From a virus (lineage: Duplodnaviria; Heunggongvirae; Uroviricota; Caudoviricetes), in the IMG/VR virus record IMGVR_UViG_2574180227_000018: a DNA stretch of 6,635 bases; one strand, 5' to 3'. The position numbers and the translations under genes are program-made. Each line of letters begins with the position of its first letter. The first letter of the stretch is position 1. Of the stretch, positions 1 through 6,635 are shown one piece after another. Under the pieces are notes generated by a model. It was not told where the DNA came from and ran no database searches. It saw only the letters and a program-made list of their open reading frames with translations.

Positions 1-1053
1 TTAAACTTCGTTTAACGCTTCCTGTATTCTTCGACCAATCCATTTCATGACCGGTACAGGCATTGAATTTCCAATGGCCTTATAACGATGAGCTGGAGAT
101 GAATTTTTCCATGGAATATCTGTATATCCATCGGGAAAACCTTGTAGCCTCTCGCATTCGGTTGGCGTCAACCTACGAACCCTTGAATATGGCGCTCTTT
201 CAACTATGAGCCCACCAGACATAGTCATGTCCTGGTTAGTTGTTCCGTTATAGCCAGCTATTACTGTGCCTGTTCGTTTTGGCAATGCTTCAAGGCAATA
301 TCGGTGCAATTTTCCTTCAATGCCTTGATCAAGAAGGGATTCGGATTTTTTCTTCTTTCCGTAATAGTTTTTATCGCCCTGCGACACAGGCGGGAACTCA
401 AATAATACCTTTCCGGGATCGAGCCTTTTTCCAGCACTTGCCACAACAAACACTCTTCTGCGAGCCTGGGCGACTCCGAAATATTGGGCATCAAGTACTC
501 GCCAGGCGACGATACGCGATGGTCCAGACACAACACCAGCGTTTGCCCATCTTTTCCTTGCTGGCTGTAATGCGCAACCTGCTCCGGCCAGCGCACCAAG
601 AAAATGACCGAATGCATTGTCATGGCTACTTAAAACTCCTGTGACGTTTTCCCATACGATTATTGAGGGGGATTTATTGAGCGATGCCCGAACGGTATCT
701 ATCTGATTCGCCAGTTCAACAAAAGACAGTGTTAACTGCCCCCGTGGATCTGAAAGGCCTTTTCGTTTGCCTGACATACTGAATGCCTGACACGGAGTTC
801 CACCTACAAGAATATCTGGTGCTTCAATAAGCCCATCCCTGATACGAGGCGCAAGCAAAGCCATATCACCAAGATTTGGTATATGGGGCCAGCGATATGA
901 AAGAAGTGTTGACGGGAAGTCCTCTATTTCACTGAACCATCTGGCTTTCCAGCCAAGATTGCTCCAGGCTACTGTCGCAGCTTCAATACCACTGCATACT
1001 GAACCATAGGTTAGTGACTTATCAGACTGAAAGTAATGTTTCTTGTTCCCCAC
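1..1053 (-). CDS. DNA (cytosine-5)-methyltransferase, phage-type, complete (GTG start at 1053, stop codon at 1-3)
   Basis: 350-aa ORF carrying C5-MTase motifs in canonical order: catalytic PCQ (GGTPCQAFS), ENV (VWENVTG), QxRxR (QARRRVFVV), and C-terminal RRLTPTECERLQGFPDGYT and AIGNSMPVPV. Gly-rich N-terminal motif I-like stretch (VCSGIEAA). SD-like AAGGAAA lies 7 nt upstream of the GTG. Short target-recognition region between motifs VIII and IX. Confidence 0.9.
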   Translation of the reverse strand: MGNKKHYFQSDKSLTYGSVCSGIEAATVAWSNLGWKARWFSEIEDFPSTLLSYRWPHIPNLGDMALLAPRIRDGLIEAPDILVGGTPCQAFSMSGKRKGLSDPRGQLTLSFVELANQIDTVRASLNKSPSIIVWENVTGVLSSHDNAFGHFLGALAGAGCALQPARKRWANAGVVSGPSRIVAWRVLDAQYFGVAQARRRVFVVASAGKRLDPGKVLFEFPPVSQGDKNYYGKKKKSESLLDQGIEGKLHRYCLEALPKRTGTVIAGYNGTTNQDMTMSGGLIVERAPYSRVRRLTPTECERLQGFPDGYTDIPWKNSSPAHRYKAIGNSMPVPVMKWIGRRIQEALNEV

Positions 1054-1207
1054 GGCAGGATTTCCTTGTGTATGTGGGGTGCTCTGTGGCGCTCTGAGAT
1101 GTGATTTGATTGAGGGTTTTGCAGCGCGGACATTTTACTTCCAGATAACTGAAACTGGCCCGTGCCAGTAGCTTATTGCAGTGTCGGCACCGTATGTTTC
1201 GATACAT
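1022..1207 (-). CDS. com: Com-like C4 zinc-finger protein (phage Mu Com family translational activator); overlaps the methyltransferase start by 32 nt
   Basis: Translation MYRNIRCRHCNKLLARASFSYLEVKCPRCKTLNQI...EHPTYTRKSC has two CxxC knuckles with Mu Com-like spacing and flanking residues (IRCxxCNKLL, CPRCK, EHPT), as I recall the Mu Com sequence. ATG at 1207 is preceded by AGGAGG with 10-nt spacing; the ORF track's longer form (to 1252) starts on a non-ATG codon with no SD. Its 3' end overlaps the downstream DNA-modification gene, as com does with mom. Confidence 0.7.
   Translation of the reverse strand: MYRNIRCRHCNKLLARASFSYLEVKCPRCKTLNQITSQSATEHPTYTRKSCRGEQETLLSV
1048..1079 (-). promoter_or_regulatory. 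mRNA hairpin sequestering the methyltransferase GTG start; SD lies in the loop
   Basis: Inverted repeat ccccac (1048-1053) and gtgggg (1074-1079). In the minus-strand mRNA the 6-bp GC-rich stem pairs CCCCAC with GUGGGG, which is the GTG start plus the next codon. The 20-nt loop contains the AAGGAAA SD. Confidence 0.35.
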
Positions 1208-1616
1208 GGCCGCATAACCTCCTGCTTTGTTGTTGATGCCTTTCTCATGCAATCGATCGACAAAAACGATCGATTCGGTTTGTTTAATTGATACAACAAA
1301 TAGATTGAAAAGTCATCAACAATGATTCAGGGCGGTGATTATTTACTTAAAGAAAACGAAGAGTTAGGTGGTGAAAACGATCATAAAATGATCATTTTAT
1401 TGACTTTTTATACAGTGAAGGTAGGATTGTGCGTATATGTAGTATGTTTCAAATCAATGGGATACTACATACATAAAGGGCGACCCAGATAGCGCGAACT
1501 ATTCTGGGCCGATTTAGACAATTTTGCATCAATGCTTTACTTCGAGCTCGTGGCGTATCCTATGATATTCCCCGGTCTCCTGTAAAGCAGAGATGCATAA
1601 AAAGGAGATCTTTATC
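1208..1616. promoter_or_regulatory. Divergent intergenic regulatory region containing four GATC (Dam) sites in two close pairs
   Basis: AT-rich 409-bp region between divergent com (minus) and the small + strand gene. GATC at 1255-1258 and 1268-1271 sit in repeated TCGATCGA and CGATCGAT contexts; GATC at 1379-1382 and 1390-1393 sit in the inverted repeat GATCATAAAATGATCA. TTGACT at 1400-1405 is a possible -35 for the + strand gene. Promoters not confidently placed. Confidence 0.3.
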
Positions 1617-1787
1617 ATGGATAAAGAGCCTGTTTACCCTGCCTGTAAGACTCCCTTACAGCTCATCTATCGCCGTTCTCGATCTCAAAATGGCAAGACA
1701 TACAAACCAAAAAATGCTTCCTGTTTCAGGATGCTGATATGCCCTGCCTGTTCTCCCCAGAGGGAAAATACACAAAACGTGCATTAA
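1617..1787 (+). CDS. Hypothetical small Cys-containing protein (56 aa from ATG 1617; ORF track gives 64 aa from 1593)
   Basis: AAAGGAG SD at 1601-1607, 9 nt before ATG 1617. Product MDKEPVYPACKTPLQLIYRRSRSQNGKTYKPKNASCFRMLICPACSP has a CPxC knuckle plus two more Cys and is basic. No family recognised. Confidence 0.45.
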   Translation: MDKEPVYPACKTPLQLIYRRSRSQNGKTYKPKNASCFRMLICPACSPQRENTQNVH

Positions 1788-1825: not shown

Positions 1826-2071
1826 TTACATCATAGTACCGTCAGTTCCGGGCTGAACCGGCTCTGGTTGCTCTACGGGTTGAGGAGCATTTTCCGTGCT
1901 GTTTTCAGCCGGAGAACGGCCAACCATTCGGGCCAGCACTTCATCAACATATGCGTCGATTTGTGCCTCAAAATCCTTGCGAACCTGCGCCTTCAGCACG
2001 CGGTTCACTTCTTCAGAATAAAGTGCCTGTTTGACAAGCTCTTCAGTAACCGTGCCTTTAATCTCTGGCAT
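1826..2071 (-). CDS. Hypothetical protein, 81 aa (helical N-terminal half, Pro/Glu/Gln-rich acidic tail)
   Basis: Strong SD AAGGAG 7 nt upstream of ATG 2071. Protein-like composition. Starts 35 bp downstream of the 60-aa gene, so likely co-transcribed with it. Confidence 0.6.
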   Translation of the reverse strand: MPEIKGTVTEELVKQALYSEEVNRVLKAQVRKDFEAQIDAYVDEVLARMVGRSPAENSTENAPQPVEQPEPVQPGTDGTMM

Positions 2072-2106
2072 GAATATTCTCCTTTTGCAGGTATATTGCC
2101 CCGTTA

Positions 2107-2289
2107 TCAGAGCGGGGTCGGGTCGTTTGGGGATGATGGTGCCTGTGCTGTTTTACTGAGCTTTTCGGCTGCTGCGTCATCAATTTTGCGGCGAATATAA
2201 TTTCTGATGACCTTATAACCGCCGCTCACCAGATATAACGCACTGACCACAGCGCAGAAATAAAGCAGCATTGTATGAACGAATGTCAT
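2107..2289 (-). CDS. Hypothetical small membrane protein, 60 aa (one N-terminal transmembrane helix, charged C-terminal tail)
   Basis: SD TAAGG upstream of ATG 2289. Hydrophobic segment LLYFCAVVSALYLVSGG followed by KVIRNYIRRK. Confidence 0.5.
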   Translation of the reverse strand: MTFVHTMLLYFCAVVSALYLVSGGYKVIRNYIRRKIDDAAAEKLSKTAQAPSSPNDPTPL

Positions 2290-2358
2290 ATAACCTTACC
2301 TTTGATATTGACTACATAATTCGTTATCGGGTAAAAACATGACGAAGTGACTGGTAAC

Positions 2359-2384
2359 TACTCCTTCGGGAGTATTTTTATTTT
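2359..2384 (+). terminator. Intrinsic terminator-like hairpin, + strand orientation (6-bp stem, UUCG tetraloop, T-tract)
   Basis: tactcc ttcg ggagta followed by tttttatttt. The U-tract follows the hairpin only on the + strand. Confidence 0.4.
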
Positions 2385-2403
2385 CCTTTATGGGTTAGGT
2401 AGC

Positions 2404-2440
2404 TCCCGCCAGCCATATCATGACCGGCGGGATTTTTTTT
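2404..2440 (+). terminator. Intrinsic terminator-like hairpin, + strand orientation (7-bp GC stem, T8 tract)
   Basis: tcccgcc, a 15-nt loop, ggcggga, then tttttttt (2433-2440). On the minus strand the hairpin sits just after the esterase stop but has no following U-tract. Confidence 0.4.
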
Positions 2441-4478
2441 ATTCTGTTACCGCTTTTTTCACTTCCACCACAATGCTGTCAATCAGCACCGGGTAAGTTG
2501 CATTTTTGGTGATATCCGTTACGCGGAGTTTGTCCACCGGGAAAGTTCCTACTGGTGACTGCGTCAGGGTAAACGCGGCACCATCCTGACCATCAATAAC
2601 CGGAATAACCTGAAGGCTGTTATTTCCTGCAAAACGGAAGGCCAGCGTATGCCATTCATTATCAAATACACCAAAGGTTCCCAGTTTCTGGTTATTTGTT
2701 GCCACTTTTGCATTGTGGTGCATCACATTCAGGTCTTTTGCGTCTGTCTGGATGTAGAACGATGCCAGCAGATTATTCCCTGCATCCCCTGTCAGGGTGA
2801 CACCCTGCGGCAGAGAGGAAACCGGCCAGTAAAGCGCCATGACATACTGGTTTGCCACCAGGTCGCCAGGTACTTTAAAACGACAACTGATTAAACCACC
2901 ATTTTTCAGCAGTTCAGCACCAGTACCGGCATCATGATCCAGATACCAGGATGATTTACCTGTTTCCTTGGTCAGTTTCATTGCCTTACCACCTGTGCCT
3001 CCTGCATCACTGATAATTTCAGCTTTACCGCCAGCCGGCTCCCAGCCCTGGGCTTTCAGATTTCCTTCTGACTCACTGACACGGTAAGACAGCAGTGTTG
3101 TGGTTACTGCTTCAGTTTCTGAAGGTGACGGCACTGGTGCTTCAGTTTCAGAAGATGGAACATCGGCTTTTACTGTGGTTCGCCCTGCATGAGTCAGAAC
3201 AGCCGTGGCCAGACGGTCGGAAATAATCCCACGACGTGCCCATGAACTGAAATGGCTGGCCCGGCCCGCAGATGTCCAGGTGGCGGCACTGTTACGCCAC
3301 GTTGAGCCGTAATAACCAATGGATTCAATATCCGGGTCTTCTGTCGGATTGTTGGTGGGTACATTCGCGCCATTTTCATCTGTCATTAATGGGACGAAAT
3401 GAATGTTTTTATCTGTTTTATTTTTGTAGCCGTCATAGATTGCCTGGTATGCCTGTTCGTTTTTCTGTTTCCAGAAATACGTGGTATCGCCACAAATCCA
3501 CGGAACGCCAGCAGCACTGCCACCGGTACACTGTTCCGCCTGTTCAGCCAAGTCTGCGCGGAATTTTTCCACCATCGCCAGAAACAGCGCGGAATGCTCC
3601 GTCGGCTTCGCATCAATATCAAACTCGCCCTGCATCCACACCACAGCAAGCAGGCGGTTTTTCGGGTTCTTCGCCAGTGCCGCTTTTGTCCGGCTGATTA
3701 AGTCCTTATACAGCGGCTTATCCACACCCCAGCGGGCTGAGTCCTCTGAAGCACCCGTGCTGTCACTGTACGTGCCGTCAGCACCCGCCGTGAATGCAGA
3801 ACCACCACGGCAGCAGGGAACCAGCAGAATCCCCGCATCTGCCGGAATAAACGGCAGCAGTTTTTTGGCAATGTGAAGCCCCTGACCCACGGTGCCATAT
3901 TGCCCTTTAGCCACATCCGCTTTCGGGTGATTTTTTCCACTCATATCCTGCACATCATGCAGACAGTGGTCGGCCAGAATGATGTCGTTATACTGACAGG
4001 CTTTACCTCCCGGCGTGACTGTACTGCGACGGGCTAACTGCATAATACGCGGTTCGGGGTGGTCATATGTCTCCGGCAGCGGCAGACCTTCACCGTAGGC
4101 CATCCCGTTTGACTGACCAGCAAGAACCACCACGTAATACCAGGAAGGGGAGCTGGAAGCAGTTTCATTTCCTGACGGACGGGTATGTGTTTCAGCATTA
4201 TCCCAGTCTGACGGTTCAGCAGTACCGGCAACATCAGCACTTAACGGAATGACAGCACCAATACCCGCACCGGTAATTTCCACGCTCGGATCACCGGATA
4301 CTGGCCTTACCCACAGGCAATCCCGTGTATTAAAACTGATGAGACAGTCAGCAAATGTCATTCCTCCTTTTGTTTCGGCCGGAGGAAAGGGAGCCTCAAG
4401 AAATGCCGCTGTACCACCGGAAACTTTAACAGTAAAGTTTCCGGGCATTGATGATAGTTGAACCCATTTGGACGTCAT
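2439..4478 (-). CDS. SGNH/SASA-family carbohydrate esterase (sialate O-acetylesterase-like, prophage NanS-p-like architecture), 679 aa, three domains
   Basis: GQSN catalytic-serine motif in VVVLAGQSNGMAYGEG and a downstream WMQGEFD block, typical of sialate O-acetylesterase/SASA domains. About 110 aa of N-terminal domain, a Ser/Pro/Glu/Thr linker with tandem SETEA repeats, and about 250 aa of C-terminal Gly/Thr-rich, probably beta-rich domain. No signal peptide. ATG at 4478. Confidence 0.8.
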   Translation of the reverse strand: MTSKWVQLSSMPGNFTVKVSGGTAAFLEAPFPPAETKGGMTFADCLISFNTRDCLWVRPVSGDPSVEITGAGIGAVIPLSADVAGTAEPSDWDNAETHTRPSGNETASSSPSWYYVVVLAGQSNGMAYGEGLPLPETYDHPEPRIMQLARRSTVTPGGKACQYNDIILADHCLHDVQDMSGKNHPKADVAKGQYGTVGQGLHIAKKLLPFIPADAGILLVPCCRGGSAFTAGADGTYSDSTGASEDSARWGVDKPLYKDLISRTKAALAKNPKNRLLAVVWMQGEFDIDAKPTEHSALFLAMVEKFRADLAEQAEQCTGGSAAGVPWICGDTTYFWKQKNEQAYQAIYDGYKNKTDKNIHFVPLMTDENGANVPTNNPTEDPDIESIGYYGSTWRNSAATWTSAGRASHFSSWARRGIISDRLATAVLTHAGRTTVKADVPSSETEAPVPSPSETEAVTTTLLSYRVSESEGNLKAQGWEPAGGKAEIISDAGGTGGKAMKLTKETGKSSWYLDHDAGTGAELLKNGGLISCRFKVPGDLVANQYVMALYWPVSSLPQGVTLTGDAGNNLLASFYIQTDAKDLNVMHHNAKVATNNQKLGTFGVFDNEWHTLAFRFAGNNSLQVIPVIDGQDGAAFTLTQSPVGTFPVDKLRVTDITKNATYPVLIDSIVVEVKKAVTE

Positions 4479-4577: not shown

Positions 4578-5138
4578 TTATTTTTCCGAAACGCTCGCAG
4601 GATAATAACGATAAAGGGTTGAAAGGCCGATATCAAAAATAAGTGCCACCTGTCTTCGGCTGACACCCCCGGCCAGTAAACGCCCGACCTGCTCGTATTG
4701 TTCCTGCGTGAGACGACGGGGTCTGCCGCCGGTTCGTCCCCTTTCACGGGCAGCAGCAAGACCAGCCCGTGTCCGTTCGACAATCAATTCACGCTCCATT
4801 TCTGCCAGCGCACCCATTATGTGAAAAAAGAAGCGCCCCATGGGGGTTGACGTATCAATGTTGTCAGTAAGACTACGAAAATTTATCCCCTGTTGCTGTA
4901 ATTCATCTGTCAGCGCAACAAGGTGGCGCATACTGCGCCCCAGCCTGTCCAGTTTCCAGACCATCAGTGTGTCGCCGGGTTTTAGTTTCTTCAGTGCCCG
5001 CTTCAGTCCCGGCCGCTGCGTCGTTTTACCACTCATTTTGTCTTCAAAAATCTGCTCACATCCTGCACATTCCAGCGCATTTCTTTGTAAACCTGTGTTC
5101 TGGTCATTTGTTGATACGCGTATATAGCCAATCAGCAT
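4578..5138 (-). CDS. pin: Serine recombinase, DNA invertase of the Pin/Gin/Hin/Cin family, 186 aa
   Basis: N-terminus MLIGYIRVSTNDQNTGLQ carries the catalytic Ser motif. Resolvase-type catalytic domain (VWKLDRLGRS, MGALAEMERELI) and C-terminal HTH (GGVSRRQVALIFDIGLSTLYRY). SD AAGGAAGG 7 nt upstream of the ATG. Immediately adjacent to an inverted-repeat-bounded segment. Confidence 0.95.
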   Translation of the reverse strand: MLIGYIRVSTNDQNTGLQRNALECAGCEQIFEDKMSGKTTQRPGLKRALKKLKPGDTLMVWKLDRLGRSMRHLVALTDELQQQGINFRSLTDNIDTSTPMGRFFFHIMGALAEMERELIVERTRAGLAAARERGRTGGRPRRLTQEQYEQVGRLLAGGVSRRQVALIFDIGLSTLYRYYPASVSEK

Positions 5139-5192
5139 GTATTTACCTTCCTTAAAAAGAGGTGGAAATGCTTTTTAAAGCAGATATACGGC

Positions 5193-5218
5193 ATCCCTGA
5201 AACCTCGGTTTACGGGAA
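5193..5218. other. Left inversion crossover site (gix/pix-like: two 12-bp half-sites around central TC at 5205-5206)
   Basis: atccctgaaacc tc ggtttacgggaa is an imperfect palindrome resembling the gix/hix core (AAACC-TC-GGTTT). An identical 26-bp copy lies inverted at the right edge. Confidence 0.7.
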
Positions 5219-5226
5219 ACGGTAAA
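5201..5226. repeat. Inverted repeat, left arm (26 bp, perfect match to reverse complement of 6610-6635)
   Basis: aacctcggtttacgggaaacggtaaa compared by eye with the reverse complement of the last 26 bases of the window. Confidence 0.85.
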
Positions 5227-5587
5227 CAGGGCGGCGAATGCCCTGCCATCGAACGGAACGGCCGTTGCCGCGAACAGGCTGGCAAATGCCCACACAATTA
5301 ATGGTGTTCCCTTTGACGGAACGCAGGATATCAACATTACCTCCGGTATGACCGAAGCTGCTGCTGATAACAAATACGTTCGCAACGTTCAGCTTGGTGC
5401 CCAGAGTTACCATTCACCCGGAGGTAATGAAATGTCCTGGAGTTATGGCGCGCCTTCCGGTTGTATGCTTTCAGGTATTAACGTGCAGGAGACCGGGAGA
5501 AATTCAGCCGATAATATCGGAGGCGTTTATTACCGTCCGGTGCAGATATATATCGGTAATGCCTGGCGCACAGTTTCATCCGTCTGA
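5201..5587 (+). CDS. Silent alternative tail-fiber C-terminal cassette (Sv'-like); no start of its own in this orientation
   Basis: Open frame begins right after a TGA at 5198-5200 and runs through the recombination site to the stop at 5585-5587. The encoded NLGLRETVNRAANALPSNGTAVAANRLA...INGVPFDGTQDINITSGM... parallels the minus-strand fiber C-terminus (NLGLRETVNKAADALPSGGTAVAANRLA...INGVPFDGTRDINITSGM...), and the ends are similar (VYYRPVQIYIGNAW versus VYYRQIQYCINGNW). Confidence 0.7.
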   Translation, partial: NLGLRETVNRAANALPSNGTAVAANRLANAHTINGVPFDGTQDINITSGMTEAAADNKYVRNVQLGAQSYHSPGGNEMSWSYGAPSGCMLSGINVQETGRNSADNIGGVYYRPVQIYIGNAWRTVSSV

Positions 5588-5595
5588 TTAAAGGA

Positions 5596-5618
5596 AAAGG
5601 GTGCGATAAGCACCCTTT
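5596..5618. terminator. Bidirectional terminator hairpin between the convergent Sv' cassette and tfa (9-bp stem, 5-nt loop)
   Basis: aaagggtgc gataa gcacccttt. On the minus strand it directly follows the tfa stop and is followed by a UUUUCCUUU tract. Confidence 0.6.
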
Positions 5619-5621
5619 ACG

Positions 5622-6164
5622 TTATTCAGGCTTCTCCGGCCATTTAATGTCGTCAAATTCAGCTTTGTTTTTAATCGCTGGTAGTTCCATTTTTTTCACC
5701 TGACTGATGTATGCCATCCATCGGGTAAGTGCGGCTCTGTCTTCATCACTGATGGTGCCCAGCTGTAATTCTGTTCTCCAGTCATTAATTTTTTCATATG
5801 CCTGATTAAGATATGACTGGCGCATTGCTTCCAGTTTTCTTGCGTAGTTAACCGGAATACGGGAGATCACGCCATTATCAAACTTCCAGTTACCCGAAAT
5901 ATCAGCACCTTCAGGGAGTTCGTCGACTTCAACCACAGAGAACCCCGCAGGATACAGCGCCGAAGCGTCCTGTGATATTGAGCAGATAATGCCGCTGTCA
6001 GGTGTTATACAAAGTTTATATTTTTTTGTGAATAATGGCAGGGACTCGTAGAAATCCTTACCATCTTCACTCTGAAAATACTGTACATCATTACCATAGA
6101 GGGTATTTTCCGGGTAATATCGTTTAACATTAATCAGTTGCATAAACATCACCATGTGAATCAA
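5622..6164 (-). CDS. tfa: Tail fiber assembly protein (Tfa chaperone; P2 G / Mu U / lambda Tfa family); probable start at ATG 6143
   Basis: C-terminal region LGTISDEDRAALTRWMAYISQV...DIKWPEKPE resembles the conserved Tfa C-terminus (lambda Tfa ends ...PDIEWPAVP), with SEDGKDFYE and ADISGNWKFDNGVI blocks upstream. The ORF-track start at 6164 is a TTG without SD; ATG 6143 has a GGTGA SD. Confidence 0.85.
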   Translation of the reverse strand: MIHMVMFMQLINVKRYYPENTLYGNDVQYFQSEDGKDFYESLPLFTKKYKLCITPDSGIICSISQDASALYPAGFSVVEVDELPEGADISGNWKFDNGVISRIPVNYARKLEAMRQSYLNQAYEKINDWRTELQLGTISDEDRAALTRWMAYISQVKKMELPAIKNKAEFDDIKWPEKPE

Positions 6165-6263
6165 TGATAAAAACAGGAATAATACTATCGCTATATACGG
6201 ACAGGGGTTGTCTGAGATAACGCATATATCAGGCGCTGCCTGCCGTACGCCATGAGCCGTTAA

Positions 6264-6635
6264 TTAAATACTTGCAGCGGATACCCAATTCCCATTAATA
6301 CAATATTGTATCTGTCTGTAATAAACACGGTCATCACCACCACGCATTTCCCAGTCTCCGTCAGTCTTAAAACCGGTAATCACATTTCCTGATGACAGGG
6401 AGTAATTATATTCCAGTACGCCGCTTAATGCCTGCGCTCCCAGTCTTACCCCTGTAACATAACGCTGATTGGCCGTTGATTCCGGCATTCCTGACGTAAT
6501 GTTTATATCCCGCGTCCCGTCGAAAGGAACACCATTAATATTTCTTGGGGTGGCGAGTCTGTTTGCTGCCACGGCGGTTCCCCCCGATGGCAGGGCATCA
6601 GCGGCCTTATTTACCGTTTCCCGTAAACCGAGGTT
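6264..6635 (-). CDS. Tail fiber protein, C-terminal variable part (Sv-like), 5'-truncated by the window edge; currently expressed orientation
   Basis: The reading frame is open from the last base of the window through the inverted repeat to the stop at 6264-6266. The ORF-track GTG at 6572 is internal. Homologous to the + strand cassette. Confidence 0.8.
   Translation of the reverse strand, partial: NLGLRETVNKAADALPSGGTAVAANRLATPRNINGVPFDGTRDINITSGMPESTANQRYVTGVRLGAQALSGVLEYNYSLSSGNVITGFKTDGDWEMRGGDDRVYYRQIQYCINGNWVSAASI
6610..6635. repeat. Inverted repeat, right arm (26 bp), part of the right inversion site, which continues past the window edge
   Basis: Reverse complement equals 5201-5226. 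The predicted crossover dinucleotide is at 6630-6631, so the outer half-site lies beyond the window. Confidence 0.85.

Follow-up and report, generated by a model that had tools for sequence, protein, structure and literature searches.

The stretch of DNA analysed here (the window; 6,635 nucleotides of a tailed virus of the class Caudoviricetes, IMG/VR record IMGVR_UViG_2574180227_000018) forms the right end of a Mu-like prophage, of the Sp18 type, of Escherichia coli. The chromosome of E. coli SW070917 contains the whole sequence at 100% identity, within an apparently complete Mu-like prophage that has genes for a MuA transposase, a MuB-like ATPase, Gam, a Mor-family activator, and head and contractile-tail proteins. 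The last two genes of this prophage, both on the minus strand, are com (1022..1207), which encodes a C4 zinc-ribbon protein of the Com family that is presumed to be a translational activator, and a gene for a C5-cytosine DNA methyltransferase (1..1053). The pair is interpreted here as, probably, a com–mom operon of the Sp18 type that has retained its Com switch and in which an orphan C5 methyltransferase has taken the place of the mom body, the enzyme serving late, self-protective methylation.

The com–methyltransferase pair and its cassette junction

The com gene encodes 61 amino acids (aa), with its ATG at 1207-1205 and its stop codon at 1024-1022, and is preceded by a Shine–Dalgarno sequence, GGAGG, at 1222-1218 on the same strand; the mechanical list of open reading frames (ORFs) also holds a longer version of 76 aa with a TTG start (1252-1022). 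The first-pass annotation of the window had proposed a Com-like C4 zinc-finger ORF at this position, and this was borne out by a match to the Pfam profile PF10122 Zn_ribbon_Com (E = 1e-12; 47.7 bits, with a cut-off of 22.9) and by four cysteines, C7, C10, C26 and C29 (CxxC...CxxC), which are invariant when the protein is aligned with the Com proteins of Mu, B3 and other phages. Identity to Mu Com is 45%, and the layout agrees with that of the family, in which an N-terminal zinc ribbon precedes a short variable tail within ~60 aa. A search of the NCBIfam profiles with Com gave 0 matches, and a search of the PDB returned no Com relative, just weak matches to the eS27 zinc ribbon.

The methyltransferase ORF is 350 aa long, with a GTG start at 1053-1051 and a stop codon at 3-1. 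In a Pfam profile search its sole match was PF00145 (E = 1.6e-42), of which profile positions 5-323 of 324 were covered, and it scored 137 bits with TIGR00675 dcm (cut-off 100.65). Motifs IV (GGTPCQAFS, with the catalytic Pro-Cys), VI (WENV), VIII (QARRRVF, QxRxR), IX (RRLTPTECERLQGFP) and X (IGNSMPV, GNS) align to those of M.HhaI and are unchanged among the relatives of the enzyme, in agreement with the earlier description of the large ORF as a complete C5-cytosine methyltransferase. The target-recognition region (approximately residues 207-290) had no match to characterized enzymes, the PDB and profile matches being confined to the catalytic core. At its 3' end com runs into the methyltransferase gene and overlaps the 5' end of the latter by 32 nucleotides (nt; 1022..1053), exactly as first annotated. 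Both genes of the pair are already annotated by the NCBI automatic pipeline with ends identical to those given here, com as WP_032164298 ('Com family DNA-binding transcriptional regulator') and the methylase as WP_000527073 ('DNA cytosine methyltransferase'). Plus-strand ORFs within 1-1252 (for example, 240-644) were disregarded, being antisense to a well supported gene.

Positions 1-1500 of the window were compared with 5426 complete E. coli genomes, and 235 records matched. The methylase was covered in just 10 of these records (10 of the 5426 genomes), whereas the other ~225 match only from ~1039 upward, at 97-98% identity, and carry the same com followed by mom; they represent the Sp18-type prophages of E. 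coli O157:H7 and its relatives. In these mom-type matches, megablast coverage begins at 1039, and pairwise alignment placed the limit more finely: identity runs through com and the sequence ...GAGCGCCACAGAGCACCCCACATACACAAGGAAATCCTG(C/T)CGTGGGGAACA, spanning the putative operator, the start-codon hairpin, the Shine–Dalgarno sequence and GTGGGGAACA, and then collapses. The left junction of the cassette is therefore placed at 1043..1044 (minus strand), where 1044 is the last shared base (GTG GGG AAC A) and divergence begins at 1043, in codon 4. The right junction is located ~55-65 nt past position 1, and thus not in the window, and after it come ~95 nt of shared Mu-like right end. Mom and the methylase both begin with M-G-N because the GTG is the common start of both, and the Mom of the sibling prophage aligns with the methylase over the first 3-4 codons only.

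As judged from these alignments, the mom body, from within approximately the first four to six codons to ~60 nt past the stop codon, is replaced by an orphan C5 methyltransferase, and what was kept in the swap is the promoter region, com, the Com-binding motif, the Shine–Dalgarno sequence, the GTG hairpin and the first three codons (M-G-N). The suggestion that a cytosine methyltransferase stands in place of Mom is thus substantiated by the near-identical com followed by mom in ~225 E. coli genomes. Furthermore, a comparison of the window with a second methylase-bearing E. coli locus (L008) showed nearly identical com regions but methylase genes of just 77% nt identity, so that the same switch precedes three or more payloads, namely mom and two C5 alleles at the least.

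Putative Com operator and predicted start-codon hairpin

The site bound by Com has been defined by systematic evolution of ligands by exponential enrichment, electrophoretic mobility-shift assays and selective 2'-hydroxyl acylation analysed by primer extension as CC(N)2-3GAG / GAG(N)2CC, adjoining a translation-inhibition hairpin that contains the GUG start codon of mom (PMC6483171). A putative Com operator on the mRNA, GAGCGCCACAGAGCACC, fits this motif and is found at 1078..1094 (minus strand), directly 5' of the start-codon hairpin. Its form is GAG-N2-CC-N3-GAG-N2-CC (GAG-CG-CC-ACA-GAG-CA-CC), and it is the sole match in the 6.6-kb window, in which 0.01 would be expected; it also codes for part of Com's own conserved 'ATEHPT'. 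The hairpin itself, which resembles the translation-inhibition structure of Mu, is predicted at 1048..1079 (minus strand), where CCCCAC (1079-1074) pairs with GUGGGG (1053-1048) and the GTG start lies inside the latter arm. The Shine–Dalgarno sequence of the methylase, AAGGA (1067-1063), is located in the loop of the predicted hairpin. This hairpin is present in both the minimum-free-energy and the centroid predicted structures, with a pairing probability of 1.00 for the start codon.

Conservation was evaluated in an alignment of 14 non-identical loci from two com lineages (the E. coli type and the Salmonella/Citrobacter type), each of which includes both payload types. The longest runs that are invariant across the 14 loci are GAGCACCCCACA, ACACAAGGAA, GTGGGGAACA, TCGATCGAT and GAGCGCCA. 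The operator blocks GAGCGCCA and GAGCACCCCACA are unchanged in 14 of 14 diverged loci, and both arms of the hairpin are invariant, while the loop and the remainder of com are variable. The operator and the start hairpin are the most conserved nucleotides of the locus. The best-conserved tail residues of Com, A-x-E-H-P-T (1073-1090, minus strand), have as their codons exactly the nucleotides that make up the Com-binding motif and the hairpin's 5' arm; Com proteins of the B3 type are without EHPT, and their operators are different. The widely conserved 'EHPT' tail of Com may have been kept for the RNA operator and hairpin arm and not for protein function.

The hairpin also has a bearing on the start codon of mom in Mu itself (L006, 2607 versus 2637): RefSeq uses an upstream ATG, whereas the literature and the conserved hairpin indicate a downstream GUG, and the Sp18-type genes have a GTG only.

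Upstream of com, a pair of CGATCG sequences containing Dam sites (GATC) forms an inverted repeat at 1251..1275, TCGATCGAT, which is invariant in the 14 loci. This CGATCG-N7-CGATCG pair is preserved across the lineages and is similar to the clustered CGATCG sequences that precede com in the mom regulatory region of Mu. A second GATC pair further upstream (1379..1393) is conserved with the mom-type O157 prophage; the sites at 1255-1393 account for four of the 12 GATC sites in the window. The late promoter of com–mom operons in Mu-like phages depends on an activator of the C/Mor type and is controlled by Dam methylation and OxyR. By analogy with Mu, and given the Mor-family activator gene in the prophage, late and Dam-sensitive expression of the operon is plausible.

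Com junctions in other prophages

Since a word-indexed protein search with Com reached just its close enterobacterial relatives, pattern-based scans with a Com alignment were used for a wider survey, which gave 160 loci. At 153 of these loci, com is followed by a gene that begins where com ends or overlaps it. The payloads were D12 N6-adenine methylases resembling ORF48 of B3 (45 loci), N6/N4 methylases of the Chuche type in P2-like prophages (35), Mom (33), C5 methylases (12) and others (28), the last including enzymes of the Neisseria/Haemophilus type without a Pfam match. Two of the 12 C5 enzymes, those of Kiloniellaceae and Aquirhabdus, are very distant (28% identity). Among 109 unique junctions between com and a payload of the Mom, D12 N6-adenine, N6/N4 or C5 class, the strict Com motif was found at 85, compared with 1% of control windows, a figure that is descriptive and not a probability because the loci are interrelated. 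Pairing of the start codon or of the Shine–Dalgarno sequence is predicted for ten types of junction, by stems of unrelated sequence (CCCCAC/GUGGGG, GAGCAUCC/GGAUGCUC, GCCAUAG/CUAUGGC, CUUACCUG/CAGGUAAG, GCGUCAUC/GAUGACGC and GGCCAU/AUGGCC).

Owing to this range of payload classes, the recurring motif and the pairing of the start or Shine–Dalgarno sequence by unrelated stems, Com appears to act as a translational gate for DNA-modifying enzymes in general, and the present locus would add a further class of payload. We advance more tentatively, with belief and doubt almost in balance, the proposal that the operator, the hairpin and the first codons form a conserved docking junction at which phages repeatedly exchange unrelated DNA-modification enzymes (Mom, D12 N6-adenine, N6/N4 and C5).

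Com-like matches in metagenome-assembled genomes of Margulisiibacteriota/Saganbacteria (L060, L075 and L090) were rejected as probably unrelated zinc ribbons, the gene directly after them encoding aspartyl-tRNA synthetase. This neighbour is curious, since Mom uses charged tRNA. In Methylophaga thiooxydans DMS010, at least 12 near-identical loci with Com and an N6-adenine methylase (L031, L039 and L042-L052) lie on different scaffolds, several of them at scaffold ends, which points either to a transposable prophage present in many copies or to a repeat in the assembly.

The closest known system is the com–mom pair of the Sp18-type prophages, with which the locus shares the promoter region, operator, hairpin, Shine–Dalgarno sequence, GTG and three codons at 97-98% nt identity, a com of 89% aa identity, the Mu-like right end and an upstream block of esterase, DUF1378 and DUF826 genes. 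The difference is the payload, which is Mom (PF25680) in those prophages and a C5 methyltransferase from codon 4 here. Mom is a Gly-tRNA-dependent adenine hypermodifying enzyme (PMC13219725). The com–mom operon of phage Mu is likewise a terminal right-end operon in which a small C4 zinc-finger Com overlaps its payload, and it has a GAGCAYCCCAC operator region, a CCCAC/GUGGG hairpin that buries the GUG start (GAGCAUCCCAC...GUGGG) and clustered CGATCG Dam sites upstream, as here. However, the spacing of the GATC sites to com differs, the overlap is 32 nt here and 80 nt in Mu (RefSeq; less if the GUG start of the literature is used), and extra cargo lies between the invertase and com here only. 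The predicted chemistry is also different, being cytosine C5 methylation here and adenine N6-carbamoylmethylation in Mu. As its payload is not Mom, the locus would work like com–mom without being a com–mom operon in the strict sense.

The replacement of mom by a methyltransferase behind com has precedents. A com homologue is followed by a non-specific N6-adenine methylase in FluMu (Hin1523), Pnm1 (Nma1821) and an island of Haemophilus aegyptius (Hia5), and Pseudomonas phage B3 carries ORF47 (Com) and ORF48 (Dam-like) at the position of mom. Putative Com sites are present at the 5' ends, and some of these partner enzymes have been shown to block many restriction enzymes (PMC3299994). The concept is the same, but those enzymes are amino-methyltransferases that act on adenine, and in the present case a near-identical sibling that carries mom allows the swap to be pinned to an exact junction. 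Literature searches on com and C5 or cytosine methyltransferases turned up no paper that describes such a pair in the mom slot.

Within the family of the enzyme itself, the C5 methylases of lambdoid late regions (Klebsiella, Citrobacter and Pectobacterium) and the ZF40 methylase show 63-69% aa identity to the product of the window, and the C-terminal half of the Dam-fusion methylase of P1/P7 shows ~46-47%. These are orphan, phage-borne and probably late-expressed enzymes, as here, but they lack Com. Since the Klebsiella gene lies between the Q antiterminator and holin genes, the lambdoid methylases are presumably controlled by antitermination.

Proposed mechanism, alternatives and prophage context

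A mechanism can be proposed in which an activator-dependent promoter, perhaps also sensitive to Dam, would drive the operon late in the lytic cycle, with the methylase start codon locked in the CCCCAC/GUGGGG hairpin. Com made from the same mRNA would bind the adjacent GAG-N2-CC-N3-GAG-N2-CC motif and the hairpin would open, the methylase being produced only once the cell is committed to lysis. The enzyme would then modify phage (and host) cytosines at a short motif, and progeny DNA would be shielded from cytosine-methylation-sensitive restriction in the next host. Such tight gating would spare the lysogen harm, for example self-cleavage by systems of the McrBC/McrA type. Com-dependent, late, self-protective methylation is well supported by homology, Com binding, Com dependence, late timing and the protective role all being inferred from Mu.

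Several observations count against this interpretation or limit its reach. A scan of the minus strand detected no sigma-70-like promoter upstream of com, although this is consistent with an activator-dependent promoter like Pmom, and two conserved GATC sites lie just ~47 nt from the com ATG, unlike the arrangement in Mu. The hairpin is a small one with a weak z-score for folding energy (-1.2 to -1.6, about -1.4), so that its support is comparative and not thermodynamic. Within lineages, no covariation of the hairpin stems was found among the 14 loci, the stems being invariant, and the turnover of stems between lineages was therefore used instead. The predicted folds contain no convincing equivalent of the small hairpin (AUGC/GCAU) that presents the motif in Mu. 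Constraint at the protein level is possible because the conserved nucleotides also encode the tail of Com and the N-terminus of the payload. Furthermore, 5-methylcytosine can attract McrBC/McrA, so that protection is conditional on the host. Finally, ribosomes that finish com traverse the hairpin, and simple translational coupling could contribute.

Coupling is common among overlapping genes, and it could be the main route here: ribosomes completing com would unwind the hairpin, and the Com protein would be dispensable or act elsewhere. The 32-nt overlap, the position of the com stop codon 29 nt past the GTG and the location of the hairpin inside the com frame are all in keeping with such a scheme. 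However, Mu Com acts as an mRNA-binding protein (PMC6483171), the exact published motif is retained here, where it is unique in the window and invariant, and the same motif recurs at 85 of 109 com junctions, some of which have no overlap. We consider translation mainly by coupling to be unlikely, although it is the strongest competitor of the Com-gated reading.

Slightly less probable again is the possibility that the methylase is cargo with a main role other than the self-protection of phage DNA, such as epigenetic reprogramming of the host, interference with other phages or defences, or killing or sensitization through methyl-dependent nucleases. The relatives of the enzyme differ in their link to Com. 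Com-linked relatives, which speak for the Com-gated reading, were found in E. coli (79% identity) and in Salmonella (68%; a cluster of 1584 sequences), where a Com ORF overlaps the methylase, an invertase lies upstream and the gene contexts are similar; in the E. coli loci, host genes follow directly after the methylase. A Citrobacter relative (~69% identity) also has an overlapping Com ORF directly before it, and all of these Com-linked relatives are situated at Mu-like right ends. The nearest Com-free relatives (67-69% in Klebsiella and Citrobacter, and 63% in Pectobacterium) begin with MTS... and not MGN...; the Klebsiella and Pectobacterium genes are located in lambdoid prophages, and no nuclease gene neighbours these lambdoid relatives either. 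The position of close relatives between Q and holin, a late-region 'moron' position, favours a cargo role, as does the neighbouring esterase block, which is likewise lambdoid accessory cargo. Against this, the methylase occupies exactly the place of an enzyme known for anti-restriction and is under the same switch, other com partners are DNA-modifying enzymes, some of which block many restriction enzymes, and late-lytic gating would leave scant time for host regulation.

The nearest Com-free relatives suggest that the C5 cassette may have been captured from a lambdoid late region. Such a capture is plausible because Mu-like prophages insert into lambdoid ones and already carry the block of NanS-p-like esterase, DUF1378 and DUF826 genes. 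In SW070917, the Mu-like prophage sits within a lambdoid prophage, between tail genes L and K, and tail gene L is the next gene, 159 bp past the methylase. In two Japanese converting phages for Shiga toxin (Stx), Stx1a/Stx2c, the element is annotated as 'inserted bacteriophage Mu-like phage' with a short target duplication, and the end of this insert is 164 bp beyond window position 1. The coordinates of the nested insertion sites are 19842-20000 in L002, 19156-19487 in L172 and 7833-7836 in L001. This nesting makes gene exchange between lambdoid and Mu-like phages physically possible, and insertion inside lambdoid prophages may have helped exchange with their late regions.

Far less probable is a decaying or silent remnant, that is, a non-functional fusion left by accidental recombination. 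The allele is rare (just 10 of 5426 complete E. coli genomes) and a neighbouring plus-strand ORF is frameshifted, but the methylase ORF is intact with all catalytic motifs, and it is under purifying selection because the ratio of nonsynonymous to synonymous substitution rates (dN/dS) against diverged Com-linked and lambdoid relatives is 0.12-0.22 at a dS near 1. In addition, Com-linked alleles are found in E. coli, Salmonella (the 1584-sequence cluster) and Citrobacter, and copies at different chromosomal sites and inside Stx phages indicate recent transposition.

C5 methyltransferases are typical components of restriction–modification systems, and an endonuclease partner would be expected outside the window if the gene were half of one. 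Past position 1, however, the cassette tail (~60 nt) and the Mu-like right end (~95 nt) are all that precedes lambdoid or host DNA. A related element is inserted at four other sites, at each of which its end adjoins host genes; one of them, L008, shows a host gene interrupted by the insertion. No ORF lies between the methylase stop codon and the end of the prophage, and no endonuclease gene neighbours it in the five independent insertions that were read beyond position 1. Since the prophage ends ~160 bp past position 1 and host or lambdoid genes follow, there is no restriction partner, and the original view of the enzyme as an orphan, which an endonuclease gene beyond position 1 would have contradicted, stood up to this check. 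A Type II system with its endonuclease outside the window or recently lost was accordingly rejected as the least probable reading of all, com being the upstream gene and no nuclease appearing in any of the five insertions.

The remainder of the window is occupied by genes on the inner side of com. The methylase had been described as lying at the Mu-equivalent position downstream of the invertase; this holds in that the pair is a terminal right-end operon, as com–mom is in Mu, but it is not immediately downstream, since ~3.3 kb of extra genes separate com from the Gin/Pin-like serine invertase (4578-5138, minus strand). These extra genes comprise a block of the type found in lambdoid and Stx-phage late regions (1826-4478, minus strand) and a frameshifted plus-strand ORF. 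Within the block are an esterase of 679 aa with SASA and DUF6645 domains, which resembles the NanS-p/YjhS 9-O-acetyl-sialate esterases and is 77-81% identical at the nt level to Stx phages, DUF1378 (2107-2289, minus strand) and DUF826 (1826-2071, minus strand). As the block is also present in the mom-type Sp18-like prophages, the Mu-like lineage appears to have taken up lambdoid accessory cargo. The frameshifted gene, annotated as hypothetical in RefSeq (1322-1787, plus strand), is found in both methylase-type and mom-type prophages and is convergent towards com; its 3' part (1593-1787, 64 aa) contains two CxxC pairs like those of a zinc ribbon and had no Pfam match.

Beyond the invertase, two sets of inverted repeats (5201-5283/6553-6635 and 5297-5356/6480-6539) flank alternative C-termini of the tail fibre (5348-5587, plus strand, and 6264-6572, minus strand) and a tail-fibre assembly gene (5622-6164), the outer repeat reaching the end of the window; together, 4578-6635 makes up a G-segment-like invertible host-range switch. 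Outside the window, a 'tRNA-OTHER' is annotated in the head-gene region of the Mu-like prophage (L172, 1153-1237).

If the Com-gated reading is right, the com-gated anti-restriction module would be extended from adenine modification (Mom and the N6-adenine methylases) to cytosine C5 methylation. The near-identical mom-bearing sibling makes this an unusually clean natural in-frame swap of payload, and because the junction lies just inside the coding sequence, the whole translational switch would have been reused. The mom and C5 sibling phages would be a convenient, isogenic-like pair for studying whether Com control is independent of the payload and how the two modifications trade off against restriction and methyl-dependent nucleases. 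Such prophages occur in Stx-converting phages and in strains of Stx-producing E. coli, and the 5-methylcytosine of a methylase that is silent until lysis would escape routine methylome surveys of these bacteria.

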